Shown here: positions 319-54,878 of the stretch, in pieces
Numbering within the stretch: position 1 is the first letter of the stretch
Layout of the letters: each line of letters starts with the position of its first letter
Virus record (IMG/VR): IMGVR_UViG_3300032281_000616
Coordinates: 138,206-202,205 of that record
Source of the DNA: a virus
Taxonomy: Duplodnaviria > Caudoviricetes
Direction: 5' to 3' (one strand)
Length of the DNA stretch: 64,000 bases
Made by a program: the position numbers and the translations under genes
The notes under the pieces: model-generated
The model's input: the letters and a program-made list of their open reading frames with translations, nothing else
Told to the model about the DNA's origin: nothing
Database searches by the model: none

Positions 319-339
319 AGTGTTATTCTAGGTTAGTGT

Positions 340-642
340 TTATTGCTTAGAACCCCATGCCAAGAGTTCCTGATAGGTTTCAAACTCGTAAATCTTAACA
401 TTACCTTCATCATTGAGCATCTTCATACATTCTTGAAGAGTCTCAGTTCCTTCAGAATACCAGTTATTACCCTCAGTCATAGAGAAAAAGAATTTGGGTT
501 TGAATGATAGTTTACCCATATCATCAGATGCAATATATCCCGGATAGTTATCAGATGAAATGAATCCATAATACTTCATGGAATTCACCTCTTTAATATC
601 TACAACGGACTTACTTTGCTCCTCAAAAATTACAGTCTTCAT
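340..642 (-). CDS. hypothetical protein, paralog of 763..1056
   Basis: shared EVNSxKxYGF...LTEGNxW...YxFxTxxELxxW pattern. Confidence 0.75.
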   Translation of the reverse strand: MKTVIFEEQSKSVVDIKEVNSMKYYGFISSDNYPGYIASDDMGKLSFKPKFFFSMTEGNNWYSEGTETLQECMKMLNDEGNVKIYEFETYQELLAWGSKQ

Positions 643-679
643 ATACGTTTATTCTATTCTAGTGTTCTATAAGAAAAAG

Positions 680-741
680 AAACCCTCTCTGAGTCATGAT
701 GAAAAACAAACGGCATTTGTTAATATACTCAGAGAGGGTTT
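680..741 (-). terminator. 15-bp perfect inverted repeat followed by U-rich tract
   Basis: AAACCCTCTCTGAGT..32 nt..ACTCAGAGAGGGTTT, then CTTTTTCTT on the minus strand. Confidence 0.55.
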
Positions 742-762
742 TACACCACCATGATGCAAACT

Positions 763-1056
763 TTATTCAGCCAACCAAGTAAACAATTCTTTAGAAGTAT
801 CGAATTGATATACTGTGAAGTTTTTATTCAAAAGATTTTCGATTGTACCTTGAAGATTACTTCGTGAATGTGAAGGCCATGAATTTCCTTCAGTCAATTC
901 TGTAATGGCTTTCATTTGATAATTTCCACCACCATAACTCACTCTTGAAATAAATCCTTTTGAATTTGTATGATTCTGAACAAACCCATAAAATTTATAC
1001 GAATTCACTTCTGATACATTTACTGTATCCCGACTTGTATTGATCACTTCTTTCAT
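763..1056 (-). CDS. hypothetical protein, paralog of 340..642
   Basis: sequence similarity by eye. Confidence 0.75.
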   Translation of the reverse strand: MKEVINTSRDTVNVSEVNSYKFYGFVQNHTNSKGFISRVSYGGGNYQMKAITELTEGNSWPSHSRSNLQGTIENLLNKNFTVYQFDTSKELFTWLAE

Positions 1057-1095
1057 ATATTCTTGTATTCTTTGAATTTCTTTGTTTCGTTGGAT

Positions 1096-1683
1096 TTAGA
1101 TATTCTCAGCCAACTTAATGAGTTCTTTTACCGTATCCAGAGGAATAGTTTGGCATCCTACCACAACCTTATCCTCATAAACCTTGGCTGTATACTCATC
1201 GGAGATCTTCAGTTCCTTATATTCTCCGAGTGGGGTGACACTCTCGAATGGTACACATACACCACTATCAGTACAAACTACACAGAACTCATGGGTTTTA
1301 AGATAATCATGAACTAAATCAGATTTATTGCTTGTTGATTCCTTGGATACCAAAACAACATTCTTAACCTTTATATGGGCAAATGAACCATTAACATAGG
1401 ATACCTTTTTACCAATAAGTTTGGTGGCTGCTTTGAATTGTTTCATATAGTCTGGTTCAGAACTTACCAGTTCAAACTTATCATCATCCCACCAAGAACG
1501 ATCATTACCCTTAGAATCGACAATATGGATGTCTCTTCCATTACTACCGATTTCATTGATTGTATATGTTTCACTTACATCATAATCGAATGATCCATAA
1601 TGCTTAGGGAGTAGTTTTACTTTGTATCCGATTTTCAAGCCTGCTGGTGTTGTTGTTTTTTCTTTCATTGTGATGATATTCAT
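1096..1683 (-). CDS. hypothetical protein, paralog of 1688..2215
   Basis: shared C-terminus YxAxVxxDxxxVGCQxIP. Confidence 0.75.
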   Translation of the reverse strand: MNIITMKEKTTTPAGLKIGYKVKLLPKHYGSFDYDVSETYTINEIGSNGRDIHIVDSKGNDRSWWDDDKFELVSSEPDYMKQFKAATKLIGKKVSYVNGSFAHIKVKNVVLVSKESTSNKSDLVHDYLKTHEFCVVCTDSGVCVPFESVTPLGEYKELKISDEYTAKVYEDKVVVGCQTIPLDTVKELIKLAENI

Positions 1684-1687
1684 AGTT

Positions 1688-2215
1688 TTATGACAATTTC
1701 TTATGTAATTCTACAATTTCTTCTACCTTGGACCAAGGGATGAATTGGCATCCTACTTTAATGAAATCTTTCTCCACAATAGCTTCATAATCTCCCACAT
1801 CCTTAACAATGTTTGATACAATAGTTAGTTGGTTTACTGGGATGACTAAATCATTGGTCATTCTGAGGGCTACAGAAAAGCCATTCCTTTTAATATCATC
1901 AGTGACTAAAGCGGATGATCTATTAGTAGGTTTGGTAAAGATTTCGATACTTTCTGGAGTGTATGTATCAATAAACATAGTAACAATCTTACCAGATTGA
2001 AGAATGTCATAAGCCTTATTTACTAATTCTTTCATAGTTTCGGGCTTATCAACAACTTCAAATCTAACAGTGAAGAATGATTCATCGGTTCCTTCTACAA
2101 AAAGAAGTTCATCGTCTTCATCATCATAACGATCAAATGTATAAATTTTATCAGCAACCAATGCGAAGTTGGGGTTGATACAACGAATCTTATCACCTTT
2201 CTTTATATTTTTCAT
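1688..2215 (-). CDS. hypothetical protein, paralog of 1096..1683
   Basis: shared C-terminus; SH3-like KKGDKIRC N-terminus. Confidence 0.75.
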   Translation of the reverse strand: MKNIKKGDKIRCINPNFALVADKIYTFDRYDDEDDELLFVEGTDESFFTVRFEVVDKPETMKELVNKAYDILQSGKIVTMFIDTYTPESIEIFTKPTNRSSALVTDDIKRNGFSVALRMTNDLVIPVNQLTIVSNIVKDVGDYEAIVEKDFIKVGCQFIPWSKVEEIVELHKKLS

Positions 2216-2222
2216 ATGTTGA

Positions 2223-2414
2223 TTAGTATGAGAAGTTTTGTGAGAGGGAAGTAGTCACTCCATTAGTCTTAAAGATAGGAGTTGATCTTGAGCTAAGGGA
2301 ACGCTTGATAGAAATGGCACCTTTCTTAGGCTTAGAATATACCATTTGAACCCATGATGTACGAAGCATCTTTTGTGGGGCGCGGAAGTCTGATTTGTTA
2401 TTGTTGCTGGACAT
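2223..2414 (-). CDS. small basic hypothetical protein
   Basis: ATG exactly 6 nt after motif -10 TAGAAT. Confidence 0.55.
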   Translation of the reverse strand: MSSNNNKSDFRAPQKMLRTSWVQMVYSKPKKGAISIKRSLSSRSTPIFKTNGVTTSLSQNFSY

Positions 2415-2442
2415 GCTCTGATTCTAGGTTAGTGTTTGATTA

Positions 2443-2769
2443 TTAAAGATTTGCATCGAATCCATCGCATCCGATAACATTACCCTTATCATCTCTGATA
2501 AGATTACCGGGAGACAATAGATCTTTTCTTGCTGGTGCTGCCATCTTTACCAAGGTTGATACGATATAATAAGTATCATCGACTTGATCCGGTAGATCCA
2601 TGACATCTCCCACTGTATTCTTATAGATAGGAATATTCATGATACTGCAAAGTTCGTGTCTTTGCATATTAACTCTTGGAACCGGATAAGACTTATCAGG
2701 ATCAATCGACATCTTGAAATCTTTTGAGATGATATTGATCGTGTGAGGTGTAAGATTGATGAACTTCAT
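2443..2769 (-). CDS. conserved phage protein with NLTPH motif (start corrected to MKFINLTPH)
   Basis: NLTPH...YIVSxLV...RxDxxGxxIGC pattern; ATG 6 nt after motif. Confidence 0.7.
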   Translation of the reverse strand: MKFINLTPHTINIISKDFKMSIDPDKSYPVPRVNMQRHELCSIMNIPIYKNTVGDVMDLPDQVDDTYYIVSTLVKMAAPARKDLLSPGNLIRDDKGNVIGCDGFDANL

Positions 2770-2794
2770 GTCAGTATTCTGCTTTAGTGTTTCA

Positions 2795-3097
2795 TCAGAG
2801 GATTTTCTTGAGAGCACTGAGGAATCTCTTTCCTGAATTACCAGATTTATTCATAATAAATAAACCAGAATTTAGGGCTGCGATTGCACCAATTCCGCCA
2901 CAATCAGTTCCCCAGATACTTCCACCCTTCAAAGGAACCATTGAAAGCAAGTGATAGTATTCCCCATCACACTCCACTAACTTATCCATATCGTTTGGAG
3001 TAAATGACTTATGAATAGATATCACCCTATCATTCTTGATATTGATATTCCATCCATACTTTTCACATTCTGATTTGAAGTCTTGTGGGGTGATCAT
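2795..3097 (-). CDS. hypothetical protein
   Basis: ORF plus motif. Confidence 0.7.
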   Translation of the reverse strand: MITPQDFKSECEKYGWNINIKNDRVISIHKSFTPNDMDKLVECDGEYYHLLSMVPLKGGSIWGTDCGGIGAIAALNSGLFIMNKSGNSGKRFLSALKKIL

Positions 3098-3145
3098 GTT
3101 TATATCTTAGGCTAGTGTTTCATGAATACTTAACTCTATTTTTCA

Positions 3146-3304
3146 TTATTCTTGAGAGAATTTATCAATCATCCTACGATACTTTTTCTTTTCCCTACGC
3201 ATCGTGCGCTTTTTGGTAGCATTACTACCAACATCGAAACAATCATCGTAATCTTTTTTCCCAGAGTGAATATGAGAACGACTATAATAATTTCGAACTT
3301 GCAT
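3146..3304 (-). CDS. 52-aa basic protein (not in ORF track)
   Basis: MQVRNYYSRSH... translated manually; ATG 6 nt after motif. Confidence 0.6.
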   Translation of the reverse strand: MQVRNYYSRSHIHSGKKDYDDCFDVGSNATKKRTMRREKKKYRRMIDKFSQE

Positions 3305-3380
3305 GTCAGTATTCTACTTTAGTGTTTCATCTATCCCAACTCAGGGTAGTTTAATGAGATACCCTAGCTCATTGTTTTGA

Positions 3381-4910
3381 TTATTCTTCCCGATTGCGGC
3401 GTGATGGAGCATCTGTAAGATGAATAAGACTTTCCATCGCACGAGTCGCTGCAACATAACGAAGATGTTTTTCTTGCTGTTGCATCCATGGAAGAACTGC
3501 GTATTTGGATGGAGAAAATTGCGCATCACCCAACCAGTAAACAGTTTTCCATTCAAGACCCTTAGCCTTATGAATAGAACTGAAGGTCACGATATTCGGA
3601 AGATTCCCATCCTTAGAATCAGTGAACATATCAGCGATAAGTTTCTCCAGAGAATAAAGATCATCCTTTCCGAGAGATTGGACACGTTCAATCAGAATGA
3701 TCATGGTATCCAACTTATCTTCCAATTGTTGCATCTTAGCATAAGAAGCTTTCTCGAACTCCTTATTGAAGAATTCATTAAGTTTGATGATGAAGTCGGA
3801 GAGAGTCTTAACCTTTTTCCACTTATTCACCAGTTTGATAAGATCCTTACCAATATCTTTTCCTTCGATACGGCAACCGATACCTTGACGAATAAGAGCG
3901 AAAGCAAGGGCAACATTAGGAGCATTGTTTCGGCAAAGAATCCCAACATTACGATCAAGCTTGATATTCATAGCTTGATCGACAAACTCTTGATACTTCA
4001 TAGAAGTGACAGAACCCTCACAGTTTCCTTCATAGGCCATGATATCAGGAAAGAACTCTTGAGCAGTCTTAATGATATTCTTTCCACAGCGGTAGCAGAT
4101 GGAAAGTGGAAGCTCTTCACATTCAAAACGCTCACGAATGAGATTCATTGAATCATTCTCAGCACCAGTGAATCCCATAATTGCTTGTCCTTCATCACCA
4201 ATAAAGATACAACGACCATCTGGTTTGACAAGTTTAGCAGCAAGAAGTTTACGACAAACATTTGTATCTTGAGCTTCATCAACGACAACCCAATCATATT
4301 GTTGACCCTTGATATCATAGATCAGGGGAAGATACTGCATATCATCAAAATCAATTGAACGAAAATCAAGATTGGAGTCCCTAAGAACTTGCTTGGCAAT
4401 TTCAATAACTTCACCAAGATCAGCATCAAAGTCTGTATCGATATCATGATGAGTGATGATTTCCATCCATGCTTGAGTATCATCGATAGAAGTTTGACCC
4501 TTAACACCAAACGCATTTTGTTTAGCGAAACCTACAAGTTTAGTAATAAAGTTGCGAGTATATTGAAGATCTTGACGTTGGCAATACTTTTCAGTGATCC
4601 AATAAACTTTACCATTCTTTGGAACATTATGCCAACCTTTAGCTTTATAGAGCATACCCTTACCCGTTGCATGAAATGTTCCAGAAATAGCATTAGGAAC
4701 GCCCATACGAGAAAGTTTCTCTTTAAGTTGCCATGCAGCTTTAGCACCAAAAGCCAACATGATAACATCACCTTTCATGAATTGTGCGCAATGCGTCACA
4801 AGAAAAGTTTTACCGGAACCAGCACGGGCTGGAATGATAAGGTTTCTCTTATTAGGGTTAGGATTACGAACCCAAGATTCGACATCAAGTTGTTGTTGAG
4901 ATAGTTGCAT
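3381..4910 (-). CDS. UvrD/Rep-like superfamily 1 DNA helicase
   Basis: ARAGSGKT Walker A, VVDEAQD, IGDEGQAIMGF, SIHKAKGLEW, YVAATRA. Confidence 0.9.
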   Translation of the reverse strand: MQLSQQQLDVESWVRNPNPNKRNLIIPARAGSGKTFLVTHCAQFMKGDVIMLAFGAKAAWQLKEKLSRMGVPNAISGTFHATGKGMLYKAKGWHNVPKNGKVYWITEKYCQRQDLQYTRNFITKLVGFAKQNAFGVKGQTSIDDTQAWMEIITHHDIDTDFDADLGEVIEIAKQVLRDSNLDFRSIDFDDMQYLPLIYDIKGQQYDWVVVDEAQDTNVCRKLLAAKLVKPDGRCIFIGDEGQAIMGFTGAENDSMNLIRERFECEELPLSICYRCGKNIIKTAQEFFPDIMAYEGNCEGSVTSMKYQEFVDQAMNIKLDRNVGILCRNNAPNVALAFALIRQGIGCRIEGKDIGKDLIKLVNKWKKVKTLSDFIIKLNEFFNKEFEKASYAKMQQLEDKLDTMIILIERVQSLGKDDLYSLEKLIADMFTDSKDGNLPNIVTFSSIHKAKGLEWKTVYWLGDAQFSPSKYAVLPWMQQQEKHLRYVAATRAMESLIHLTDAPSRRNREE

Positions 4911-4959
4911 AAGTGGTGGTTTCTCGTTACGTCCCTATTCTAGGCTAGTGTTTCATCAA

Positions 4960-5160
4960 TTAACCTTCAGTGTCAAACATCTGAACAGTGAAACCTTCCC
5001 CTTCAAAAATTCTATTCTCATAATGAAGATCAAGAGGAATGATTCCATATTCTTCCAACACTTCACCAAATTTATCCTCTTGATCCGAAATAGAATCAAG
5101 ATAATGTAGTTCAGATACCTTATTATTTTCAGTGATAATTACTAGATAGTGTGTAAACAT
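4960..5160 (-). CDS. hypothetical protein
   Basis: ORF plus motif. Confidence 0.65.
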   Translation of the reverse strand: MFTHYLVIITENNKVSELHYLDSISDQEDKFGEVLEEYGIIPLDLHYENRIFEGEGFTVQMFDTEG

Positions 5161-5185
5161 GTTAGTATTCTAGGCTAGTGTTTCA

Positions 5186-5461
5186 TCAGTCAACTACGGA
5201 CCAAATTACATCAGTGACAATTTTTCTCTTCTTCATCGGTAGATTCTTCACATTTTCAATGATTTTTTCACAATCATCGTAAGGAATACCGCGCAAAGCT
5301 AGATTGTTTGCTGTGATGGTTCTATTAAAAGTCTTAATCCATTGAGTTTTTTCATTATTCTTAGCAATTAGATAGAATCGTTTATCGTTAGATCTTTCTT
5401 CAGTGTCGGTGTAATAATCCCAAACCAATTCAACATGATAAGTATCTGGTGAGTTGTGCAT
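5186..5461 (-). CDS. hypothetical protein
   Basis: ORF plus motif. Confidence 0.65.
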   Translation of the reverse strand: MHNSPDTYHVELVWDYYTDTEERSNDKRFYLIAKNNEKTQWIKTFNRTITANNLALRGIPYDDCEKIIENVKNLPMKKRKIVTDVIWSVVD

Positions 5462-5483
5462 GACCTAATCTTAATCTAGTGTT

Positions 5484-5666
5484 TCATACTGTAATATCCA
5501 ACTTAGACTTCTTACGATTCATGATGACTTGAAACCATTCATCCAGTTGATCTTTACCAGATTTTCCACCATAACCCTGAAGTTGATTTTGTCGAATACT
5601 CATCCCCATATTGAGAGCTTTATCAACTAGAAATTTTACTTCTTGTTCTGTGTATGTATTTTCCAT
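5484..5666 (-). CDS. hypothetical protein
   Basis: ORF; stop overlaps motif. Confidence 0.6.
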   Translation of the reverse strand: MENTYTEQEVKFLVDKALNMGMSIRQNQLQGYGGKSGKDQLDEWFQVIMNRKKSKLDITV

Positions 5667-5689
5667 TGTGGTGATTTATTATTTTGAAA

Positions 5690-5801
5690 TCAAGTGATAG
5701 GACTCGAACCTATAATAATGCCGGTTGTGACGATGCGCTCGGGACAGTGCTATTTTACGCTTATCCTATTACTCACTTACCAGTGTGTCTGCCACACTTA
5801 A
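5690..5801 (-). ncRNA. 112-nt tRNA-like RNA (acceptor stem and T-arm, non-canonical middle)
   Basis: TTAAGTG/CACTTGA closing stem; ATAGG-TTCGAGT-CCTAT T-arm. Confidence 0.55.
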
Positions 5802-5875
5802 AATTATCAGAAAATTTGATAGTAACGCTACACCATCATATTCGGGGGTGGATACAGCCAGATTCTTAGACTTAT

Positions 5876-6145
5876 TCACTTCATAGGGACAAGAAGAGTA
5901 ATCATTTGCTCATCCCCATCTTCATCCTTAACATAGAGATTGGTTCCATCGAATGCGATATCTCCACAATCCTTCATAAAGACCAGACTGAATGAATTAT
6001 TATCGTCTTCCCAATCAAATTCCAACCACCAATCTTCATCATTAGAATCTTCCCATGATGGATAAACCAGAACATTATCATCGATAACGCAGGCAGAACA
6101 ATCTTGAATAAGTTTAAGTGCTTCGGCTTGTGTGATGTTTATCAT
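5876..6145 (-). CDS. acidic hypothetical protein
   Basis: ORF plus motif. Confidence 0.7.
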   Translation of the reverse strand: MINITQAEALKLIQDCSACVIDDNVLVYPSWEDSNDEDWWLEFDWEDDNNSFSLVFMKDCGDIAFDGTNLYVKDEDGDEQMITLLVPMK

Positions 6146-6170
6146 AACGTCCTCAGTTTAGGATAGTGTT

Positions 6171-6359
6171 TCAACGATACAAGTAGCGATCAGTATCATC
6201 AGGAAAATCCGAAATGACACAATTATAAAGTTGTTCATCTAAGAAAACATCCATAATAAGTTCGATCTTATTATTAGACAAATGAGGTTCTTCCAACTTT
6301 GTCTTGATATATTCAAGAGCATTTTCTCTTGTAAATCTTAGTGTTGAGTGTGCGCCCAT
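6171..6359 (-). CDS. hypothetical protein (start MGAHSTL)
   Basis: ATG directly after upstream stop; own stop overlaps motif. Confidence 0.6.
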   Translation of the reverse strand: MGAHSTLRFTRENALEYIKTKLEEPHLSNNKIELIMDVFLDEQLYNCVISDFPDDTDRYLYR

Positions 6360-6360
6360 A

Positions 6361-6609
6361 TTATTGTGTTCTTGTTTTACCTTTGGTAATCTTCGGACCA
6401 CCTTCATTGTATCCGGTCCAAGCATTCTGAGATTTATGAACCTTTAGTTCTTCATCGGGTAATGCTTCCCTGATTTCAAACCATTTATATTGTTTAAGAT
6501 TAGATTTTTTCAAAGCATTCATATAGTTTTCACACTTATGCTTTGCATTCGTTTCCAACCTGACCATCTTTTTCTTGGATTTACCAGCAAGTAATGTATA
6601 AAGTTTCAT
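6361..6609 (-). CDS. hypothetical protein
   Basis: ORF. Confidence 0.65.
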   Translation of the reverse strand: MKLYTLLAGKSKKKMVRLETNAKHKCENYMNALKKSNLKQYKWFEIREALPDEELKVHKSQNAWTGYNEGGPKITKGKTRTQ

Positions 6610-6809
6610 CTTTCGTATTGAGGAAATTGTTCTTTGAATGCTTTATAATGTGTCCAATAACCTGATCCTTTTGATGGTGGAAGTTCTTTTCCAATATCAA
6701 AAGTTATTGCATAGAAGGTTTCATCTTTGAATAAATCAGATGGACAAGTCCAAACTTGGCGCATGATTCCATTCACTTCCATATTACAATCAAATTCCCA
6801 ATGTTTCAT
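6606..6809 (-). CDS. hypothetical protein (start MKHWEFD)
   Basis: ATG 1 nt after upstream stop. Confidence 0.6.
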   Translation of the reverse strand: MKHWEFDCNMEVNGIMRQVWTCPSDLFKDETFYAITFDIGKELPPSKGSGYWTHYKAFKEQFPQYER

Positions 6810-6810
6810 A

Positions 6811-7023
6811 TTAGTCTTGTTTGTAATATCTCCTAGCATTAACTTTCTTATTAAATCCTCTCCATCCTCCACCAACTCTTACAAAGTATTTGTAATCAGG
6901 ATAATCTTTAGGATGATCAAGAGACATAATACCATTCTCGGTGGAATGATCGAAATCACGAAGTTTCCAATCTTCTACAAAGAAACCAGAATCATTAGGA
7001 TCAATTTGATAGTCTCGAAGCAT
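6811..7023 (-). CDS. hypothetical protein
   Basis: ORF plus motif. Confidence 0.65.
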   Translation of the reverse strand: MLRDYQIDPNDSGFFVEDWKLRDFDHSTENGIMSLDHPKDYPDYKYFVRVGGGWRGFNKKVNARRYYKQD

Positions 7024-7044
7024 GAGAGTATTATGGTTTAGTGT

Positions 7045-7335
7045 TCAATAACACCGATCAGGATGCCATCCGCGAGGATAACGCTCGATGAGTTTAATTT
7101 CATCAATCAAATAACCGTCTTCTTCTGTATATCTAAACTTAACAACCCCATCAACTTCAACCCTAGCTTCGACAGGAAAATCCTTTCGATCACATCCAAA
7201 ACCTTCATGGATTAAACTTTGATAGACACATTTAGCCGCATACTCAGAATGGTGAGTATCTTCTGATTTATTTTCAGATGATTCACTCCAACCTAATCGA
7301 ATTTCTCTTGGCCATACTAGAATGCTTTTGATCAT
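7045..7335 (-). CDS. hypothetical protein
   Basis: ORF plus motif. Confidence 0.65.
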   Translation of the reverse strand: MIKSILVWPREIRLGWSESSENKSEDTHHSEYAAKCVYQSLIHEGFGCDRKDFPVEARVEVDGVVKFRYTEEDGYLIDEIKLIERYPRGWHPDRCY

Positions 7336-7356
7336 GTTACTATTGTGGTTTAGTGT

Positions 7357-7533
7357 TTAATACTTTCCAACTTGCCACATAAGAACATCAAATCCTGCTA
7401 ATTGATATTTCAAACGCTTCTTATTAGCTTTATCAATATCCTTAATAAAATGTTTCTTATGAAGCACGGGTTCACCAGTTTTCCAAGACCAAACCATAAT
7501 CTGATACTTACCAATATGTTTGTCTTTATTCAT
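7357..7533 (-). CDS. hypothetical protein
   Basis: ORF; stop overlaps motif. Confidence 0.55.
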   Translation of the reverse strand: MNKDKHIGKYQIMVWSWKTGEPVLHKKHFIKDIDKANKKRLKYQLAGFDVLMWQVGKY

Positions 7534-7538
7534 AAGAT

Positions 7539-7754
7539 TCAATTCCTTTCACATGAGATAATTAATTCAGCTTTATGTCCTCTATATGGATCAGATGAAA
7601 GGTAATCATGAAGTTCGGAAGAATATCCATCCCACATAATACCTATACTTTGTCGATCAATTCTATTCAAGATTTTATCTATAGCTTCTTCCACCACACT
7701 TTCAGAAACATCTCCACAATACATAGATACTTCGATAGTTATTTTCTTACGCAT
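7539..7754 (-). CDS. hypothetical protein
   Basis: ORF. Confidence 0.6.
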   Translation of the reverse strand: MRKKITIEVSMYCGDVSESVVEEAIDKILNRIDRQSIGIMWDGYSSELHDYLSSDPYRGHKAELIISCERN

Positions 7755-7765
7755 ATTGATTTATT

Positions 7766-7984: not shown

Positions 7985-8006
7985 GTCCTAATACTATCGT
8001 AGTGTT

Positions 8007-8397: not shown

Positions 8398-8402
8398 ATA
8401 AC

Positions 8403-9155: not shown

Positions 9156-9157
9156 AG

Positions 9158-24138: not shown

Positions 24139-24159
24139 ATCGTTATTTTAACTTAGTGT

Positions 24160-25158
24160 TCACAGATGAACAGTTGTAAGTCCATCAGTAGTTGTCCAAT
24201 ATTCTCCAAGTTGTTGAAGTGCATTCAATACTTGTTCCTTGGTCGCCCAATTAGGAGAGAAAATATTTTGGATTTGTCGAATAGTTACTTCTGTGTAACC
24301 TTCATCCCTCTTCTTAGTGAGATAATTATCAACCTTTGTTACAAAGGCATCTAATTCCTTAACAAGATCGGGAACAATTGTATTTTCTCCATCCTCATCA
24401 ACAACGGGTGCTGTAATTTCTTCTACAAAGTCTGACATAACTTCATATTTACACACACGAACCTTTTGACAATTACAATCAGATGGAACTGATACAACAT
24501 CAGCAGGATTGATCTTAACTACAATTAGTTTAGAGGCAAATCCCCTAGCATAATCAAGAGATCCAGCATGAAGACCGAATGAACAATGCTTTTCACGATT
24601 ATCATCAACATCACGACGACGAACTTCAATAACAGATCCTACTCCATTATAAATTTGTCCATCAGAATTAACATAACCCTGAATAACCTTAGTATTCAAA
24701 TTTCCATGTGACGAAAAATAGTTATAATTGACACCCTTATAGGCAAGGAAGCAACCATCTTCTGTGAGAGGTAGTTCCTTATAGTCTAGGAATTCTGTCA
24801 ATTCCTTCACACTCTGAGCACTTGGATTTTGCTCTAGGTTAGCCCAGAACTTCTCAAAGTGTTCCAATGGGAGTCCATCAGCGATGATAGACAAAACCTT
24901 ATCTGAGAAAGCTTTAGGAAGCTTCTCGCCCTTATAGAAGATTTCTTCACCTTGGATATCAAATCCTTCAGTTTCTTCGATAACCTTATCAGCCTTGACG
25001 ACCTTATTAAGGATCGCCTCGACCTCTGCTTCTTGCTCATCTTTTGGTAGTTGAAAGACTTTGATAATTTTTGGATATCGTTGATCAGTCTTCTCAACGC
25101 GGATATTCTTTCCGTTAATAAAAAGAATAATTGCTTCTGTGTTAATTGCGTATTTCAT
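24160..25158 (-). CDS. rIIB: rIIB-like protein
   Basis: FLAYKGV, DDNREKHCSFGLHAG, VKINPADVVSVPSD; follows rIIA. Confidence 0.8.
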   Translation of the reverse strand: MKYAINTEAIILFINGKNIRVEKTDQRYPKIIKVFQLPKDEQEAEVEAILNKVVKADKVIEETEGFDIQGEEIFYKGEKLPKAFSDKVLSIIADGLPLEHFEKFWANLEQNPSAQSVKELTEFLDYKELPLTEDGCFLAYKGVNYNYFSSHGNLNTKVIQGYVNSDGQIYNGVGSVIEVRRRDVDDNREKHCSFGLHAGSLDYARGFASKLIVVKINPADVVSVPSDCNCQKVRVCKYEVMSDFVEEITAPVVDEDGENTIVPDLVKELDAFVTKVDNYLTKKRDEGYTEVTIRQIQNIFSPNWATKEQVLNALQQLGEYWTTTDGLTTVHL

Positions 25159-33882: not shown

Positions 33883-34541
33883 TAGTGTGTCCTATTGTGG
33901 TCAAGGATGCGTATCGATTTTGTAGACATCACATCTTCAATCTCTGAATACGTCCAAACATCATTCTTATAATCCCAACCAAGATCCAATCCTTTTTGAT
34001 CTGCTGATTCTGGTCTACGTCCTTTATCTTGCATATGAGAATGACCAGACAGCATCCATGAGCCTCTAGCGTCTCCTACCCATATCCTCAATGGAAAATG
34101 ATTCATGATAATCTGCTGTTTACCAATCCAGATTTCTTGATGATTACCAAGAAATACTACATTATTCATGCGAAGAGGATAAATTTCAATATCATCTCTT
34201 CCGAATTGTTTGATCATTTCTTGCTTATAGAGACGATACATTTGTGATTCATGATTACCGAAAAGCATCATGATATTTTGACACTTGATGCTATTCAACC
34301 AACCAATCACTTCTCCATCGGTAGCCGACAGAAAGCTATCTCCAAGAATCCATAAGATTTGATTCTCTCCAACCTTAGCATTGATCTTCTCTCTGACATC
34401 ATTATAAGATTCTTCTGGTGAGTTGTAACCCCTCATCTTCCAAATAGGAACTGGCCAACTTGGATCATGATAATTATGAAAATCTGTAGACCAGAAATGA
34501 TCGTTTCGATTTTCGTATTTGTATTTTAGTATCTTATACAT
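33882..34541 (-). CDS. calcineurin-like metallophosphoesterase
   Basis: STDFH, ILGD, FGNHE, NHFP, GHSH. Confidence 0.85.
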   Translation of the reverse strand: MYKILKYKYENRNDHFWSTDFHNYHDPSWPVPIWKMRGYNSPEESYNDVREKINAKVGENQILWILGDSFLSATDGEVIGWLNSIKCQNIMMLFGNHESQMYRLYKQEMIKQFGRDDIEIYPLRMNNVVFLGNHQEIWIGKQQIIMNHFPLRIWVGDARGSWMLSGHSHMQDKGRRPESADQKGLDLGWDYKNDVWTYSEIEDVMSTKSIRILDHNRTH

Positions 34542-34770
34542 TCTCTATTTCTTTAATGATTTCGTCAATCCCTTGAATGATTGTAACGTTTTCTCCATCC
34601 TCAACAACTAAGCGAGGGACAGATCTAATTTCATGTTTAGTGAAAAAATCCCTGTCCCCAGCCAAGCTATAATCCTTCACCTCTACCTCTAGACCAAGTT
34701 TGGATAGCTTAGATTTAAGCATCGAACATGGTCCACATGAGGGAGATATACATAAGGTATTTTTTTTCAT
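34534..34770 (-). CDS. glutaredoxin/thioredoxin-like protein
   Basis: CGPC, RSVP. Confidence 0.8.
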   Translation of the reverse strand: MKKNTLCISPSCGPCSMLKSKLSKLGLEVEVKDYSLAGDRDFFTKHEIRSVPRLVVEDGENVTIIQGIDEIIKEIENV

Positions 34771-34802
34771 ACCCACAAATGGTAACACACCCAAAGGTGA
34801 AG

Positions 34803-34946
34803 TCAAGGTAAAAATAAACCCACTGTGCTTGAGATAGTCTTATTGTCCACGCGACCTTCGGACAACTCCTGCACTCGTTTGATTACTTTACCCATATCCT
34901 TCTTAGAAGTTGCTCCTAATTCTAGGATTGTGTTCTTAACCATCAT
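34803..34946 (-). CDS. 47-aa protein resembling the C-terminal half of YqeY/GatB
   Basis: ELGATSKKDMGKVIKRVQELSEGRVDNKTISS. Confidence 0.5.
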   Translation of the reverse strand: MMVKNTILELGATSKKDMGKVIKRVQELSEGRVDNKTISSTVGLFLP

Positions 34947-47598: not shown

Positions 47599-47758
47599 AT
47601 GATGTAAATGATTTTTCCTTATTTGAAGCTTCTTGGTATCCTTCCCAAAACCAAGTATTGGCTAATTCTTCCATCTTATCTCGAATATCATTCAACTCTT
47701 CGGTAGTATACCCCCAAGTTTCATGTAGCTCTTGTAATGCTAGATCTGTAATTGTCAT
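47573..47758 (-). CDS. hypothetical protein (start MTITDLA)
   Basis: ATG 6 nt after motif. Confidence 0.6.
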   Translation of the reverse strand: MTITDLALQELHETWGYTTEELNDIRDKMEELANTWFWEGYQEASNKEKSFTSYGKSEDYE

Positions 47759-47780
47759 GTCCGTATTATTCATTAGTGTT

Positions 47781-48206
47781 TTATTGATCATTCTGGAAAA
47801 TATTTCCAACAATCTTCATGTCATATGCTTCGCAAAGAGGAAATCCAGAGTCTATATCTATACCTTGTAGAACCCATCCATAGTTTTGCCATTCAATCCT
47901 ATCTTTGAATCTAGAATTAGCTAATGTGTATTCTACAATATCTCCTTCGTATATATCTACACTCTCTTTATCAGTCATTCCTGTCCATTGTTGGATGATA
48001 TATGGACTCTCCGAAACAAGAGTCGTTTTATCCATATAAAAATCTGGCTCTACATCTGGTGTGTAATGCTCTCCAACTAAAGCGAAATCATATATTTTTC
48101 CACTGAAAATATCCAACATCCAGTGACTCCAACAATGTAGACTATGGTCATCTTTAGACAACCATCTTTTATTTCTCTTATTCCAAACTCTAAACTTCGG
48201 CCTCAT
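47781..48206 (-). CDS. YopX-family protein
   Basis: KFRVWN...QQWTGMTDK...IYEGD...IVGNIFQN. Confidence 0.85.
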   Translation of the reverse strand: MRPKFRVWNKRNKRWLSKDDHSLHCWSHWMLDIFSGKIYDFALVGEHYTPDVEPDFYMDKTTLVSESPYIIQQWTGMTDKESVDIYEGDIVEYTLANSRFKDRIEWQNYGWVLQGIDIDSGFPLCEAYDMKIVGNIFQNDQ

Positions 48207-48744
48207 AATCAAAAGCTGTTTCTATTTTTTTAATTAGTTCTTCCAATGTAATATCTAAACCTTCTTGGAAATATCTTACATCAAAATTAGTAACTTGGAC
48301 TAATTTCTCTGGTTCTAACCCATACAAAAAATTTACCTTGTTATGATAACCTCCTCGATGGTATGAATAATTTTCATTGTCCACCAATACATTATTCTTA
48401 TTCTCAAATCTTGGAACTGTGTATCCAATATCTTCTCGTGTAAATGTATTTTGGGGTGAGATGCCTAAATCCAAGAGATGAGCAGCCCTCAAAACATAAT
48501 CATTAGTCCCCCAAGAAAGAATACAAATATTATCCAATCCTAAAGTCATCTGGAAGTATGATATCAATTCCTTAGACCAAGATCGTATGAATGATACATA
48601 CCACCCATCGTTCGGTAATTGAAATTTAACACCGTGCCAATATTGGCCATACGTTTCCAACAATTCATCAGCGTGTTTTTCATTACTGGCATACATAGAT
48701 GAGGCCAATGTCTCATCAAAATCCAATACTAATACTTTAGTCAT
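48190..48744 (-). CDS. HAD-superfamily phosphatase
   Basis: LVLDFDETL; LVDN. Confidence 0.75.
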   Translation of the reverse strand: MTKVLVLDFDETLASSMYASNEKHADELLETYGQYWHGVKFQLPNDGWYVSFIRSWSKELISYFQMTLGLDNICILSWGTNDYVLRAAHLLDLGISPQNTFTREDIGYTVPRFENKNNVLVDNENYSYHRGGYHNKVNFLYGLEPEKLVQVTNFDVRYFQEGLDITLEELIKKIETAFDYEAEV

Positions 48745-49475
48745 AATTTATATTCTTTGTTAGCATCAAATTCAAAAATCTCATTAATATCCAAACACTG
48801 ATAGTATACACCATTTCTTTCCTCTTTCTTAGAATTGTGGAAGTGACCACTTACGAGCGTTTTAGCCTCTGATTTTTCCAGAATAGAGGACATTAACTCT
48901 CTTTGAGTATAACAATCTGATAATAGTGTTGGATCTTTATCAATAGACCATTGAAATCTCACATGTAGAGTATTCGTTGGATGATTGAAGTAATCTGGTG
49001 CATCATGCGAGAACATGATATCACATTTCTCCACGTTATCAATAGGTATTGTGGGTTCATCATACCAATAATCAACACCTTGTTTTCGATTACATCTATC
49101 AACGCTTATTCCACCACCTACTAGAATAGCTTTCTTCCCATTTGGGAATTCTACATATTCGTGATCTTTGACGAGAACAATATTTGACCATTTACTGTCC
49201 CAAATTTTGGGATAAGTTGCATCATGATTTCCTCTTATAATGTAATACATCACATCTATAGCTTGACATAGTTTATTGATTCTATCCAGCCAAGATAAAG
49301 CGTTCTCGATAGCATACGAGATATTACCAAAACCAAGTCCACTGTCGCCACAGTGAACCACATCACTCCCATCAGGAATATTAATATTTAAAATATCATA
49401 TACTATAGAAGTAGAGTGGGTATCGCCAATTAAAATGACTTTATTGCTTCTGAATTTAAATCTATTTTGTCTCAT
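48741..49475 (-). CDS. calcineurin-like metallophosphoesterase
   Basis: IGDTH, HCGD, RGNHD, SHDAP, GHFH. Confidence 0.85.
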   Translation of the reverse strand: MRQNRFKFRSNKVILIGDTHSTSIVYDILNINIPDGSDVVHCGDSGLGFGNISYAIENALSWLDRINKLCQAIDVMYYIIRGNHDATYPKIWDSKWSNIVLVKDHEYVEFPNGKKAILVGGGISVDRCNRKQGVDYWYDEPTIPIDNVEKCDIMFSHDAPDYFNHPTNTLHVRFQWSIDKDPTLLSDCYTQRELMSSILEKSEAKTLVSGHFHNSKKEERNGVYYQCLDINEIFEFDANKEYKL

Positions 49476-49514
49476 AATTTGGTGTATTTGGTGTAGGATT
49501 TACTAAATAATAAC

Positions 49515-50471
49515 ATGGATGAAGTTAGAATAATTGAAATGTATACGCAGGGGAAGGGTTCTCCGACTATAGCTAAAGAATTCGGAACCAATTTTTATGA
49601 GATTTTAAAAGTTTTGAAGCGAAATAAAATCGAGCTAAGAAGTGCGAGAAAAAGTTCTAAAAGGACCATATTCGATGAAAAATTTTTTGAAAGAATAGAC
49701 ACCGAAGAAAAGGCTTACTTTCTAGGTTTTATTTTAGCAGATGGGTGTATAAGTGTCAAGCGTAATTATCTGAAAATTGGAATCTCCAGCAAAGATATAA
49801 TAATTTTAAAAGAATTTAATAGGATAATGAAATCGGATGTAAAAATTCACACATACCCACATAAAGGAAGCTTCAGTGGTGAACGATACGAATTATCGTC
49901 TCTCACCTTTATATCCCCAAAAATAGTATCTGATTTAAACAATCTCGGAATCGGTGAAAGGAAGACATTTACAGTGATTCCTCCTATAATAGATGAATCA
50001 TTGGAACATCATTTTTGGAGAGGAGTAATGGATGGGGATGGTCATATTAGTTTATATAATACTAAAAACTTAAAACACGTCCCCAATATTGAATTCGGTA
50101 TATGCGGAAACATGTCAACTATGTCATCCCTATCTACATTTTTAACAAAATATGGTATAGATCATAAGATTACACCAGATAAATCAATTTTTAGAATTAG
50201 ACTAACTAATAGGCGAGCATTAAAAATTTTGGATATCTTATATAAGAATTCTACGATTTTTCTTGATAGAAAAAAGGCGAATTATATGATGTATAAAAAT
50301 GCTAGACAAGAAGCGGACAAATCTAGTCCTAAAAATCTAGGAATAAAAAAGACAAAATCTGGTAATTATACATCTTCATCATTAATAAGTATACATGGCA
50401 TACAAAAACGCATCGGAACCTTTAAAACCTTTGAAGAAGCTTTAGAAGCGCAAAATAACTTTAGTGTTTAA
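49515..50471 (+). mobile_element. LAGLIDADG homing endonuclease (two motifs)
   Basis: AYFLGFILADGCI and FWRGVMDGDGHI. Confidence 0.88.
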
Positions 50472-50895
50472 TATATTGCCTTGCCGATTCAAAAATAGAC
50501 TTGATTATAGGGCGGGCAGCACTATTCGCACTATGAACATAATAAGTTGGTAGAGGGTGCTGTAGCCTCTTACAGCGATCACACAACCAATCAGCGCAAT
50601 GCGCTCCAGTCTTATACTTAGAACCTCTCCAATTCATCATAGAATACAATTCTACTAGATCTCCTTGAGGTATATCTGTATCACAACAATTAACCAAATC
50701 ATTATCAAATGAGACGACATGGGGAATTCCGAACTTTTCAACATACTCCACAAATTCTTCATAAGATCTAACAACATCCCACTTTGAATTGGATATACCA
50801 GAGTATTGCTGCAAAGTCTTATCCTCTTCAAATATATAACAATGTTCAGGTTCTCGAATGTCATCGAGTAAAATCGCTCTAAATTCTTTTTTCAT
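50461..50895 (-). CDS. cyclic-phosphate-processing receiver-like domain protein
   Basis: ILLDDIR...WDVVRSYEEF...SFDNDL...TGAHCADWL...HSAN. Confidence 0.7.
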   Translation of the reverse strand: MKKEFRAILLDDIREPEHCYIFEEDKTLQQYSGISNSKWDVVRSYEEFVEYVEKFGIPHVVSFDNDLVNCCDTDIPQGDLVELYSMMNWRGSKYKTGAHCADWLCDRCKRLQHPLPTYYVHSANSAARPIIKSIFESARQYIKH

Positions 50896-51649
50896 ACACA
50901 TATTCTAATTCTTTCCATTTAATTTTGCTGTAAATTTGATTTTTCGTCAATCCCAATTCATCTCCCGCATTTTTAATAGTTTTCCATCTTTTGTTTGTTT
51001 TTGGACAAAAGATGTATCTTATCTCTAATGGGGTATTATGACATTTTTCTAGTGGTGTAAAATTTTCAATATCAAAACTCCAATAATATCCGTGAGTTGA
51101 CTTACCACGCCTTCTACAAGTATTACTTATTAATTGAGTGGGTATATTTGTCGCTTCGGATGCTTGTTTGATGGAATCAAACTCATTTAATACTTTTAGT
51201 GTTTTTTTATCTATTTGATAAACTTTTTTATACATAGATTTAAGTATTTTATCCATTGCTGGAACAGATCGTCTCTTCCCGAGATGAGAATCTGACATTT
51301 TCTTTCTACTCTCATCTGAGACTTTTTTCTTCCAATTGCTTCCAGCTACTCTTAATACATTATATCCAAAATCCCTATCATAAGATTTATAATAATCCAT
51401 CCATTTTTGTTCATGTGTCAATAATTCGTCTAAATTTTCAATTTCTTCAATCGGTAAAAATTCAAAGACCCCCATCCCCCATTTATAAAATGATGATTGT
51501 AGATATTTACTATCGTGCGTTCCTTTTCGAAGTTTATTCCGATGTTGTTTCCATCGTTTACGCATATTGACAGCACTTCCTATATAATGCTTACCAGTTT
51601 CTTTATTTGTTATCCTATAAATTCCAGATATATTATTATTTATTTTCAT
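50879..51649 (-). mobile_element. GIY-YIG homing endonuclease
   Basis: SGIYRITNKETGKHYIGSA; GYN. Confidence 0.88.
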
Positions 51650-52543: not shown

Positions 52544-52547
52544 ATTT

Positions 52548-52739
52548 TTATCCTATATTTTGCATCCACCAAAAGGAAATTTCCTTTTCAAAATCTTTTT
52601 TATTTTTGACCGATCCCGGTCTAACAAAGATATACGTCTCTGCTTGTTCTAAATTAGAATCTGACCAAACTTCAATTACATCATCTTCTTGCATGATGAA
52701 ACTATAGTTTCCCACATTACCCTCATATTTCTCACTCAT
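52548..52739 (-). CDS. hypothetical protein
   Basis: ORF plus motif. Confidence 0.6.
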   Translation of the reverse strand: MSEKYEGNVGNYSFIMQEDDVIEVWSDSNLEQAETYIFVRPGSVKNKKDFEKEISFWWMQNIG

Positions 52740-52774
52740 CTTTACCTATTCATTATAGTTTAGTGTTTTATTTA

Positions 52775-53659
52775 TCAAAGCCTCTGTATTACGTTTTTTA
52801 CAAGACTTTTGAATCTGTATGTTGCTGTATTATTAGGCATCTTTTTCCAATTTTCTATTAATACAGCAAAAAATTCGTCAAAATTTGTCAAACCATATTG
52901 GGGAAATCCTAATTTCTCTGAAATTCTTTTTCTCCATTTTAAAGTTTCTTTCATATCATCAGCTTTGGTGGGATCACCTTGCAGAATACGTTTCTTCCTT
53001 TTAGATTTTCTCCAATAAGAATCTAATAATTCTTCATAGGATTTTTTCAACAATGGTTCGGTTTGTGTTGGTATCAAATCTGCGACATAATGAGCATATT
53101 CGTGAACAAATATGCTTGGTTCATCGATAGCGTATTGATCAATAAAAATCAATCTATCTCGATAGATACCTGCTGCATCTCCAGCATATGTATTTTTAAA
53201 TCTAAAATTTTTGGATTCATCGGTAATAACAAATCTTGGTTTTCTGTTAGGTAAGATGTCTTTGATTTCGTTCAGCATATTGATTATAGAATTTCTCAAC
53301 ATCTTCATATTATACGCATTGGTTTCGAAACTCTGGTCAACCAACCCATCCAAAAAAACTTGGATCCCTTGATGTTCAAATATTTTCTTATATTGTGATG
53401 TTTTTTCTCTCCTGCTCAACACAGCAAATTTATCAGCTTGTTGATCTAACCAACTATCCGCTCTATTAGGAAATATCCCCTTTAACTTTAGGTAATCGTC
53501 TTTAATTTTTTGATCGACTTCATTCTCAATCTCACCATTAAGAATGTAATTTTTCCAATCCCTTTTCCATTCTTGGACTGGAGGTAGTTTTTGAGCAGGT
53601 GGTAGTTGCGCTTTTCTTAGGGGATTTTTAATACCCTCAGTGAGTTGATCAAAATTCAT
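52775..53659 (-). CDS. late-expressed protein with zincin HExxH motif
   Basis: FVHEYAH...DEFFA; TAAATA 6 nt upstream. Confidence 0.65.
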   Translation of the reverse strand: MNFDQLTEGIKNPLRKAQLPPAQKLPPVQEWKRDWKNYILNGEIENEVDQKIKDDYLKLKGIFPNRADSWLDQQADKFAVLSRREKTSQYKKIFEHQGIQVFLDGLVDQSFETNAYNMKMLRNSIINMLNEIKDILPNRKPRFVITDESKNFRFKNTYAGDAAGIYRDRLIFIDQYAIDEPSIFVHEYAHYVADLIPTQTEPLLKKSYEELLDSYWRKSKRKKRILQGDPTKADDMKETLKWRKRISEKLGFPQYGLTNFDEFFAVLIENWKKMPNNTATYRFKSLVKNVIQRL

Positions 53660-53984
53660 CTACATTATTTATGTAATCTTTAACAACTTGAAGTTTATGT
53701 TCTGCTTGTGCAGCCAATTCGATTGCACATTCCCATTTATTCTTCCAACCTACAATTTCGTTTTTGAGTTGTTCATTCTCAATAGCAAATTTAGTATTCA
53801 CTTCCCTTAAATTTTCTAAATCTTTGGGTAAACATGGTAGCTTACTGAACTTAACTAAGTGATCTGTATATTCTCGGAGATGTTCAACCTCTTTTTGTAG
53901 TTCTATGATATCAGAGTAGAATACCAACGATCCCCCTTTAGAGGGAAAGAGACGACCATACTGTGTTATTCCATACCTATTCAT
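53649..53984 (-). CDS. coiled-coil hypothetical protein
   Basis: ORF. Confidence 0.6.
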   Translation of the reverse strand: MNRYGITQYGRLFPSKGGSLVFYSDIIELQKEVEHLREYTDHLVKFSKLPCLPKDLENLREVNTKFAIENEQLKNEIVGWKNKWECAIELAAQAEHKLQVVKDYINNVDEF

Positions 53985-54481
53985 CTGTAATTCTCCCATT
54001 TTTCAGCTTCTTCATCACACAAAGTTTTAGTCCAATAATTTCTATGTCTGGCTTTGCCTTCTTTTCCTGTGATTTCACAGGTTTTTAGAGAATCGAGAAC
54101 TAATTTATGTTGTAAATCTTTGTAATCTTCCCAATAAAGCTCACGATATTGTCCATAGAATTTACCCTGATTAGCAATCTCCCCAAACTTCTCCTTCAGG
54201 ATAAAGGTTTTGAAATAAATTTCGTGTCCATTATCCTTAGCTTTTTGAATAAGTTTTCTCATATTCGAACAAAATTCTCGAATAATCTCTTTCCACCCAA
54301 CATCCATCTCAAATCCGTATCTCAAATTACACAGGTTCTCGAATCGAGGAACCTGAACCTTTCTATAATAATTGTGATACCAATCTAATACATCTGGAGA
54401 TGGTTCCAGAAAAATTTCTGGATATTCCTCTACAACATCCAACCATTCTGGTTTTATTGATGCTCGGTCAAATTCTTTCAT
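53981..54481 (-). CDS. conserved phage hypothetical protein
   Basis: GWxEII...KEKFGE...TCEITGKEG...WTKTLC. Confidence 0.7.
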   Translation of the reverse strand: MKEFDRASIKPEWLDVVEEYPEIFLEPSPDVLDWYHNYYRKVQVPRFENLCNLRYGFEMDVGWKEIIREFCSNMRKLIQKAKDNGHEIYFKTFILKEKFGEIANQGKFYGQYRELYWEDYKDLQHKLVLDSLKTCEITGKEGKARHRNYWTKTLCDEEAEKWENYR

Positions 54482-54485
54482 GGGC

Positions 54486-54845
54486 TTATGATACCAGAGT
54501 TTTGTGGGAAGTCAAGGACAAAATCTCTTCATCATCCACTTCTTCAATTTTATACACTGAATTCTGTGTTTCGAATCCGTCTTCGGTGATTTTTGTGACT
54601 CGTGATGTTTTAAAGGTTCCTCGAATGAGTTGACCATTTCGCATCCACCGATCCATAATCAGAGATTCTCCAATAGTCGGTCCACGTAAAATATCCCCAA
54701 TAGTCCAGTAATCCACATTAGGGGACAAATGATCATCACTGTATGAGAATACAGAATTTTCTACAGACTTACGATATTCATCGTGTGTTTCCGCTGTTGG
54801 AAACCTTGCTTCGTCGGAAGCTTTCAGCTTTGTGATCTTGTGCAT
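54486..54845 (-). CDS. hypothetical protein
   Basis: ORF plus motif. Confidence 0.7.
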   Translation of the reverse strand: MHKITKLKASDEARFPTAETHDEYRKSVENSVFSYSDDHLSPNVDYWTIGDILRGPTIGESLIMDRWMRNGQLIRGTFKTSRVTKITEDGFETQNSVYKIEEVDDEEILSLTSHKTLVS

Positions 54846-54878
54846 GTCGCCATCATAGGCTAGTGTTTAATGAGTAGA

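Follow-up and report, generated by a model that had tools for sequence, protein, structure and literature searches.

A lineage-variable spacer box marks a predicted leaderless promoter class in a clade of uncultured freshwater T4-like phages

The last 64 kb of the 202,205-bp circularly assembled phage genome IMGVR_UViG_3300032281_000616 (G000) contain a long series of small genes, most of which are preceded by the same compact motif, an 11-bp box placed three nucleotides upstream of a -10-like hexamer that is fused at a fixed distance to the start codon. This 64,000-nt stretch is called the window, and positions refer to it unless “genome” is stated. We consider it probable that the motif defines a class of promoters that is restricted to a single clade of uncultured freshwater T4-like phages and would produce leaderless messenger RNAs (mRNAs) with the host RNA polymerase and a putative phage factor. 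G000 itself is such a phage, with a G+C content of 33.8% and a set of T4-type core genes (gp23-like capsid, gp20-like portal, gp43-like polymerase, gp44-like clamp loader, gp46-like nuclease, UvsW, and a gp55-like open reading frame, ORF). The nearest cultured relatives of these core genes are cyanomyophages and a pelagimyophage at only ~30-33% identity, and a megablast search of 20 kb against GenBank phages gave zero matches.

The core of the box, AAACACTA, occurs 53 times in the window and exclusively on the minus strand, compared to a mean of 3.38 and a maximum of 8 copies in 100 dinucleotide shuffles. The original prediction, which was made from the window alone, had counted 52 copies on one strand between 334 and 54868 and roughly estimated two to three by chance; all 52 were recovered there on the minus strand, with the 53rd located at 60951-60958, and the excess over chance holds. 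A hexamer of the form nAnnnT follows after exactly 3 nt in 48 of the 53 copies, in agreement with the A(-11) and T(-7) noted earlier, and our recount also returned the 40 copies in which ATG lies exactly 6 nt past the hexamer, while the ATG is found 2-6 nt later than this position in a further 5. Copies lacking a -10 hexamer (5 of 53) are about as numerous as chance would place them (3.4 expected). Across the whole genome, AAACACTA is present in 67 minus-strand and 6 plus-strand copies, the combination of box, N3, and nAnnnT in 64 copies (1.35 in shuffles), and the complete series of box, N3, hexamer, N6, and ATG in 41 (0 in shuffles). The distance from hexamer to ATG has a single sharp peak at 6 nt (41/64 sites), every other offset being represented by at most 4 sites.

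A position matrix was built from these 64 genome sites, which were selected on box and hexamer, so that A(-11) and T(-7) are present in 64/64 by construction. The full motif reads A(-26)T(-25)nAAACACTA(-16)-N3-TAnAAT-N6-ATG with a pyrimidine at -1: A(-26) is found in 54/64 and T(-25) in 62/64 sites, AAACACTA occupies -23..-16 at 3 bp from the -10, the hexamer at -12..-7 has the composition T/C-A-n-A-A/C-T, position -1 is C or T in 56/64, and +1 is A in 52/64 sites. The hexamer is degenerate in the manner of -10 elements of the sigma70 family (TATAAT, TAAACT, TAGAAT, CATAAT, and others), its sole fixed positions being A(-11) and T(-7), whereas the box is far more rigid, with ~5 credible one-mismatch variants, 4 of them GAACACTA, where the G stems from the TGA stop codon of an upstream ORF overlapping the box. 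The box is not palindromic. The matrix shows no conservation at -35..-30, as had been predicted, and no TGn extended -10, since -15/-14 are purines (A or G). With n/T at -24/-25 and T/n at -12/-13, the matrix likewise lacks the features of sigma54 promoters (GG at -24, GC at -12). The box is frequently abutted or overlapped by the stop codon of the ORF before it, and stops in all three frames occur within box, linker, and hexamer at 40/64 sites (e.g. 316-344) compared to 2.8% of random 30-mers; thus, each promoter also terminates any upstream reading frame.

The interpretation of this motif as a promoter giving leaderless mRNA, with the start predicted at the A of ATG, is well supported by the logic of the sequence. 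The promoter part of the original claim gains from the sigma70-like variation of the -10, the spacing to +1, the pyrimidine at -1 with A at +1, and a geometry shared with the canonical promoters of the same genome. The leaderless part stands as a prediction from the ATG offset and the lack of Shine-Dalgarno enrichment: among ORFs without a promoter motif in five genomes, Shine-Dalgarno sequences were no more frequent than in a control window (66/780 and 71/780, respectively). A TANNNT element at a fixed short distance before the start codon, as found here with an offset of 6 in 41/64 sites, has been shown experimentally in Deinococcus (D. radiodurans) to be a promoter for leaderless mRNA when it lies a few bp before the ORF (PMC12340547). 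ATG-fused promoter motifs precede ~40% of called ORFs genome-wide (133/326 in G000). At the end of the block, several boxed units lack an ATG at +1, and in some no ORF of >=25 aa follows within 40 nt, one of these leading into the tRNA-like stretch described below, which argues that the box is not a translation signal. No enrichment of terminator-like sites was seen over the first 20 kb of the window (12 compared to 8.4 in shuffles). The density of roughly one promoter per 0.8 kb might be explained by the need of each efficiently translated gene for its own promoter if no ribosome-binding site is available and a 5'-terminal AUG is required instead.

The box promoters share the genome with two other promoter classes of the same ATG-fused design. 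Canonical promoters of the form TTGAC(A/T)-N16/17-TAnnnT-N6-ATG occur 7 times in G000 compared to 0.35 in shuffles, and precede the clamp loader, helicase, kinase, thioredoxin, a glycosyltransferase-like gene, and others; elsewhere, the class was found 3-7 times in three larger genomes (0-1 in scrambled controls) and twice in the 99-kb fragment G005 (0 in controls). Only ~10 canonical promoters are available genome-wide. Late-type TAAATA-N5/6-ATG boxes are more numerous (74 compared to 17 in shuffles). The boxed sites do not carry the TATAAATA-type box that T4 late promoters have at about -13..-6, their hexamers being TAnAAT at N6 from ATG, and they also lack the good -35 and TGn of T4 early promoters; a generic sigma70 scan returned 92 sites compared to 90.9 in shuffles. 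The bare TAnnnT-N6-ATG occurs 277 times in the genome. Only few boxed sites add TTGAC at -34..-30. In the related phages G001 and G003 the local box stands inside the 16-nt spacer of a full -35/-10 promoter, e.g. before the ortholog of a 166-aa ORF that in G000 has a canonical promoter, so that in sister phages the promoter of this gene holds both the -35 and the local box. The original notion of a box “in place of a -35” was therefore imprecise: the box is a spacer element rather than a shifted -35, it can accompany a true -35 (TTGACA/T, 16-nt spacer), and its position is compatible with sigma region 4 on the -35. The glycosyltransferase-like gene mentioned above (genome 56822-57526, minus strand; Glyco_tranf_2_5 by language-model neighbours) has kept its canonical -35/-10 leaderless-type promoter in three lineages, and by analogy with the T4 glucosyltransferases its product may modify DNA.

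Relatives were retrieved from IMG/VR with the UvrD/Dda-like helicase of the block as query. The architecture recurs in eight related contigs, each with 15-37 copies per 15-21 kb locus, and the box comes in four variants. Variant A (ATnAAACACTA) is shared by G000 with L008, L013, and L014 (77%, 57%, and 59% helicase identity to G000, respectively), variant B (AATTAAAACCG) is found in L009 and L010 (67%), variant C (ATTAAAAACTA), a single base away from A, in L012 (66%), and variant D (ATAAAACGTTA) in L015 and L016 (54%). Constant across the nine contigs are the A/T tract at -26..-21, the 3-nt gap, the hexamer, and N6-ATG, whereas -20..-16 are variable. The canonical -35 is TTGACA/T in every lineage, and the -10 is likewise unchanged. 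Counted on both strands, each whole genome or fragment of a relative has 59-81 copies, most of which share one strand and a single region of ~50-70 kb. The architecture is absent from distant relatives with 36-39% helicase identity. Every multi-copy contig in IMG/VR belongs to the clade, and 10/10 single-copy contigs tested were unrelated, which is consistent with chance. Within 10 kb on either side of the helicase, the only family common to all nine loci (G000, L008-L010, L012-L016) is the helicase itself; what stays constant at these loci is the promoter, with the genes as exchangeable cargo. Box type tracks genome-wide phylogeny (median identity to G000 of 69% for G004 and 53% for G001), and this concordance leaves no discordance that could be used for covariation with a reader gene.

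Several searches were aimed at the factor that might read the box. A six-frame search of the complete genome with PF09114, PF09158, and PF09010 for MotA and AsiA gave zero matches at E <= 10. A T7-like or multisubunit (Rpb1-type) phage RNA polymerase was not found with PF00940 and PF00623 at E <= 1 (the PF00940 control gave no signal anywhere, so that this half of the search is weak), which suggests that the host RNA polymerase is used. The sole sigma-like match was a weak region-2 hit in the gp55-like ORF of 153 aa; sigma regions 3, 4, and 4_2 were absent or below threshold and inconsistent between genomes, although a very divergent sigma would escape such a search. Protein family scans (Pfam, n=50; PHROGs, n=30; mostly covering the block and its neighbourhood) yielded RNA-repair enzymes, phosphatases, YopX, homing endonucleases, and a glycosyltransferase. 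The 166-aa ORF is the only gene of the block with a canonical promoter in three lineages, making it a positional candidate for an immediate-early gene or for the factor. Its AlphaFold2 model is confident (pLDDT 96, pTM 0.90); neither Foldseek nor VIA-align (best Z 3.9) matched this model to a fold in PDB, giving no functional hint, and homologs were found on viral metagenomic contigs only.

Two other proteins were considered and set aside. A helix-turn-helix (HTH) protein with a metallophosphoesterase domain was rejected as reader of the box because its recognition helix is identical across lineages with different boxes, and an ORF of 294 aa with a late promoter inside the block resembles a zinc peptidase.

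Clues to the host are sparse. A scan of GTDB (one genome per prokaryotic species) for box A with hexamer and ATG gave only single chance matches among the matches listed, except for one metagenome-assembled genome (MAG), and a complete scan of prokaryotic species genomes for box B resulted in 24 unrelated single matches. The exception, Flavobacterium sp. MAG JAYVIK01, holds the box in many copies on five small contigs (C225, C126, C129, C86, C319); C225, the contig that was compared, carries early genes of the clade and thus represents misbinned phage DNA. As a host hint this MAG is weak, and it conflicts with the canonical TTGACA/TATAAT promoters and with the lack of Bacteroidota-type motifs (no enrichment of TAnnTTTG/-33 TTTG promoters). 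A search for psbA did not find the gene, and the nearest matches of a ferredoxin-like accessory gene in bacterial records lie on tiny contigs of a freshwater Synechococcus assembly.

Taken together, the host RNA polymerase with its primary sigma would read TAnAAT at -12..-7 and start at the A of ATG 7 nt downstream, so that the first gene of each unit would be translated from a message lacking a leader. Since most sites have neither a -35 nor TGn, their selection would depend on the 11-bp box, which occupies -26..-16 in the spacer and lies one helical turn from the -10 on its upstream side. The box is most likely bound by a phage-encoded protein that also contacts RNA polymerase, be it an activator, a sigma appropriator, or a sigma-like subunit, and this protein would supply from the spacer the binding energy otherwise given by a -35 or TGn. 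The shared A/T tract at -26..-21 might be read by shape in the minor groove and the lineage-variable -20..-16 by base contacts in the major groove. Expression of the factor from the few canonical promoters would make the boxed genes delayed-early or middle genes, and its injection with the DNA would make them immediate-early. A more specific version, which we put forward tentatively and with somewhat less than even confidence, is that a new sigma-appropriating or sigma-like phage factor reads the spacer at -26..-16 and that its specificity switched at least four times among sister lineages, resulting in a private code with one leaderless mRNA per gene in a host without Shine-Dalgarno pairing.

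Some observations weigh against this overall interpretation. The searches for MotA, AsiA, and sigma regions 3, 4, and 4_2 left no candidate for the factor, and the only DNA-binding domains in the Pfam and PHROGs scans were those of the HTH protein and the modules of two homing endonucleases. A phage-encoded factor that is not packaged would mean that the ~60 promoters cannot be immediate-early, which leaves only the ~10 canonical ones to initiate the cascade. For an activator site, so nearly invariant a sequence is unusual, given that MotA tolerates many changes (PMC2988021), and the agreement of box type with phylogeny could equally reflect different hosts. Moreover, none of the public RNA runs listed holds the early region as RNA; a capsid-gene search of RNA runs gave small shares only (max 0.17), and four freshwater metatranscriptomes matched window positions 1-20000 with fragments of 18-82 nt, mostly 30-45 nt, without usable cover.

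Among the alternatives, the host holoenzyme itself might read the box as a very strong immediate-early element, through sigma domain 3, the beta-prime zipper, or a host protein associated with RNA polymerase, in which case the four variants would mirror four hosts. We regard this as unlikely, although the boxed genes form a typical early-type block with no other abundant early class next to the ~10 canonical promoters, the searches yielded no phage factor, and box type follows phage phylogeny as host switches would. T4 early promoters, too, hold conserved information beyond the -35, TGn, and -10 (PMC2988021). Nevertheless, the TTGACA/T -35 and the -10 are alike in all lineages, so that a change in sigma would have to touch spacer reading alone, and we know of no primary-sigma holoenzyme that reads -26..-16 in a base-specific manner. 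No bacterial species representative has many copies among the matches listed, the sole multi-copy record being the misbinned MAG (the host may be outside the collection), and no unrelated phage contig has them either. The confinement of the multi-copy motif to the clade and a box that varies while -10 and -35 stay constant speak for a clade-encoded factor rather than for a property of the host sigma. Of the two sources left open by the original prediction, a phage-encoded factor or an unusual host sigma, the former is thus preferred, with the reservation that the factor itself was not found.

The box might instead be mainly an operator through which a phage repressor or shut-off protein silences the whole class, promoter strength coming from the -10 and its A/T-rich context. 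A spacer site overlapping the RNA polymerase footprint is typical of operators, extreme invariance would fit a tight-binding repressor, and the box accompanies some full -35/-10 promoters that are expected to work unaided. However, most sites possess neither -35 nor TGn, and the bare TAnnnT-N6-ATG is far too common to explain the choice of ~60 sites, so the box must carry positive information; as the scans gave no repressor-like HTH protein and the box lacks palindromic symmetry, we consider this role improbable. A function in RNA or recombination, such as a processing site trimming transcripts to AUG, ribosome loading without Shine-Dalgarno pairing, or microhomology for cassette shuffling as in PeSL elements, appears more remote still. 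Probable read-through from unit to unit, given terminator-like sites at shuffle level, would place the motif in RNA as well, and the highly variable cargo between boxes, with one family common to nine loci, resembles PeSL-flanked regions (PMC2839356, PMC4122927). On the other hand, the sigma70 -10 signature, the identical geometry of canonical -35/-10 and late promoters that have no box, and the boxed units without ATG at +1 or a nearby ORF argue against such a function, as does the lack of enriched terminator-like stem-loops. Eleven bp are short for homologous exchange, and a role in recombination could add to promoter function but not replace it.

The closest functional analogue of the predicted box promoters is the T4 middle promoter with MotA and AsiA. 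Both combine a host-type -10 with a phage-specific upstream box replacing the -35 in ~60 copies per genome, and both belong to T4-type phages that rely on host RNA polymerase with separate early-like and late classes (PMC2988021). The box promoters nonetheless fall outside that class by box sequence, position, and the MotA/AsiA genes: the MotA box (TGCTT core) lies at -35..-26, centred on -30 and 12-13 bp upstream of the -10, in contrast to -26..-16 and 3 bp here, the two sequences are unrelated, and motA/asiA homologs were not found. Further, our box coexists with a -35 whose use AsiA blocks in T4, it is almost invariant where MotA is tolerant of many changes, and its transcripts are predicted to be leaderless. 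In their invariance within a genome, the box promoters resemble those of the T7, T3, and SP6 group RNA polymerases, which are near-invariant per genome and differ at few specificity positions between sister phages; unlike these, they have a sigma70-type -10, and a phage RNA polymerase gene was not found.

Leaderless transcription is familiar from other phages: lambda cI is expressed from PRM as a leaderless mRNA from an ORF-adjacent promoter, and Sevostyanova et al. reportedly found in 2007 that the middle and late transcripts of Thermus phage phiYS40 are leaderless. Compared to these and to Deinococcus-Thermus, the extra invariant box is particular to our phages, which also show no Shine-Dalgarno signal and ATG-fused promoters at ~40% of ORFs. 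The ORF-adjacent promoters of Deinococcus-Thermus share with the box promoters a TANNNT fixed a few bp before the start codon (PMC12340547). PeSL cassettes share a repeated conserved early-type promoter before nearly every small ORF in a hyperplastic region whose cargo varies between close relatives (PMC2839356, PMC4122927), but PeSL elements consist of a canonical sigma70 promoter and a hairpin, whereas here the conserved part is a lineage-variable, ATG-fused 11-bp spacer box, and terminator-like stem-loops are not enriched. As far as our literature searches reached, there is no report of a leaderless ATG-fused architecture with a private box, or of such an architecture in T4-type phages, and nothing relevant was found on the box sequence.

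The box promoters occupy a single block of 57 kb (genome 135.9-193.1 kb) whose genes are small and fast-changing. Median spacing between the promoters is 777 bp, and ~60 small genes stand behind a box promoter; coordinates of the window part are given in Table 1. The motif vanishes in the structural region, as originally stated, the lone copy beyond 55 kb being one of those without a -10. The 119-aa ORF of the first unit is conserved in G004 (60%) and G003 (36%).

Table 1. Positions of box promoters, canonical promoters, and associated genes in the window.
Feature	Position	Strand	Remarks
Window part of the block	334..54868	-	48 copies with box, N3, and -10
First box bases (part 1)	54868, 52768, 47781, 45467, 42629, 40779, 40096, 38115, 36302, 35208, 32760, 31850	-	
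First box bases (part 2)	31267, 29694, 28508, 27455, 25459, 25186, 23057, 22231, 21959, 20275, 18830, 18110	-	
First box bases (part 3)	17399, 16731, 16180, 15624, 15084, 14857, 14012, 13290, 11383, 10565, 10148, 9474	-	
First box bases (part 4)	8743, 8007, 7358, 6171, 5484, 5183, 4953, 3327, 3120, 2792, 2437, 341	-	
Example unit	316..344	-	A(-26) 344, box 341-334, linker 333-331, TAGAAT 330-325, N6, ATG 318-316, leader 0; 75-aa ORF
First unit of the block	54486..54871	-	box 54868-54861, TATGAT, ATG at 54845; 119-aa ORF
Variant box GAACACTA	24154..24161	-	good -10, ATG at +1
Other variant boxes	7039-7046, 660-667	-	
Orphan boxes without -10	60951..60958, 51197-51204, 50462-50469, 19689-19696, 18463-18470	-	
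UvrD/Dda-like helicase gene	3381..4953	-	box promoter with 20-nt leader
Canonical promoter and 166-aa ORF	53981..54515 (ORF 53981-54481)	-	TTGACT-N16-TATCAT-N6-ATG
Second canonical -35/-10 promoter inside the block	34534..34806	-	78-aa thioredoxin-like ORF
HTH and metallophosphoesterase protein, 358 aa	55788..56864	-	immediately upstream of the block; identity among sister phages 72-74%

Directly to the left of the window, the block ends in a 1.8-kb segment (genome 135.9-137.7 kb, minus strand) with 10 box promoters in DNA of higher G+C content. Behind the box at genome 136370 lies a stretch of ~170 nt that ends in a tRNA-like T-arm and acceptor; ARAGORN makes no call here and no Rfam family was found for the RNA-like region at the block end, and the stretch may be a small RNA or a tRNA-like element. 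Where the minus-strand block meets a plus-strand region, two inverted boxes stand ~40 nt apart (genome 135833, plus, and 135882, minus), possibly as a hairpin or boundary element. Among the genes of the block, an RNA-repair-type cluster on the minus strand (33882-50901) comprises two RNA-ligase-like ORFs, an AAA_33 kinase-like ORF, two metallophosphoesterases, a histidine phosphatase, a NIF-like phosphatase, and a cREC_REC domain protein, and may counter host defences that cut tRNA or mRNA. Homing endonuclease genes (GIY-YIG, LAGLIDADG, HNH) are located in or beside the block at 20945-21640, 49515-50471, 50879-51649, and 55138-55848; those at 20945-21640 and 49515-50471 have late-type TAAATA boxes in place of the early box.

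The timing of pre-replicative genes is largely unknown in T4-type phages beyond T4 and its near relatives, and cyanophage-like, pelagiphage-like, and methylophage-like members have neither MotA/AsiA nor recognisable middle promoters (PMC9004378); a countable promoter class would help to fill this gap. A phage-specific promoter class on host RNA polymerase is of a known kind, the lineage-variable box in the spacer is a new element, and the factor behind it has a substantial chance of being new as well. In practical terms, the rule of box, N3, hexamer, N6, and ATG serves to place gene starts and to uncover small ORFs in phage genomes from metagenomes, and the four box alleles form a natural specificity series that can be tested by box swapping. 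ATG-fused promoters before ~40% of ORFs, together with the missing Shine-Dalgarno signal, are a strong clue to an unusual translation regime of the host. If the reader of the box indeed is a new RNA polymerase-binding protein, these phages would offer a new, spacer-based way of reprogramming bacterial RNA polymerase and a compact orthogonal pair of promoter and factor.

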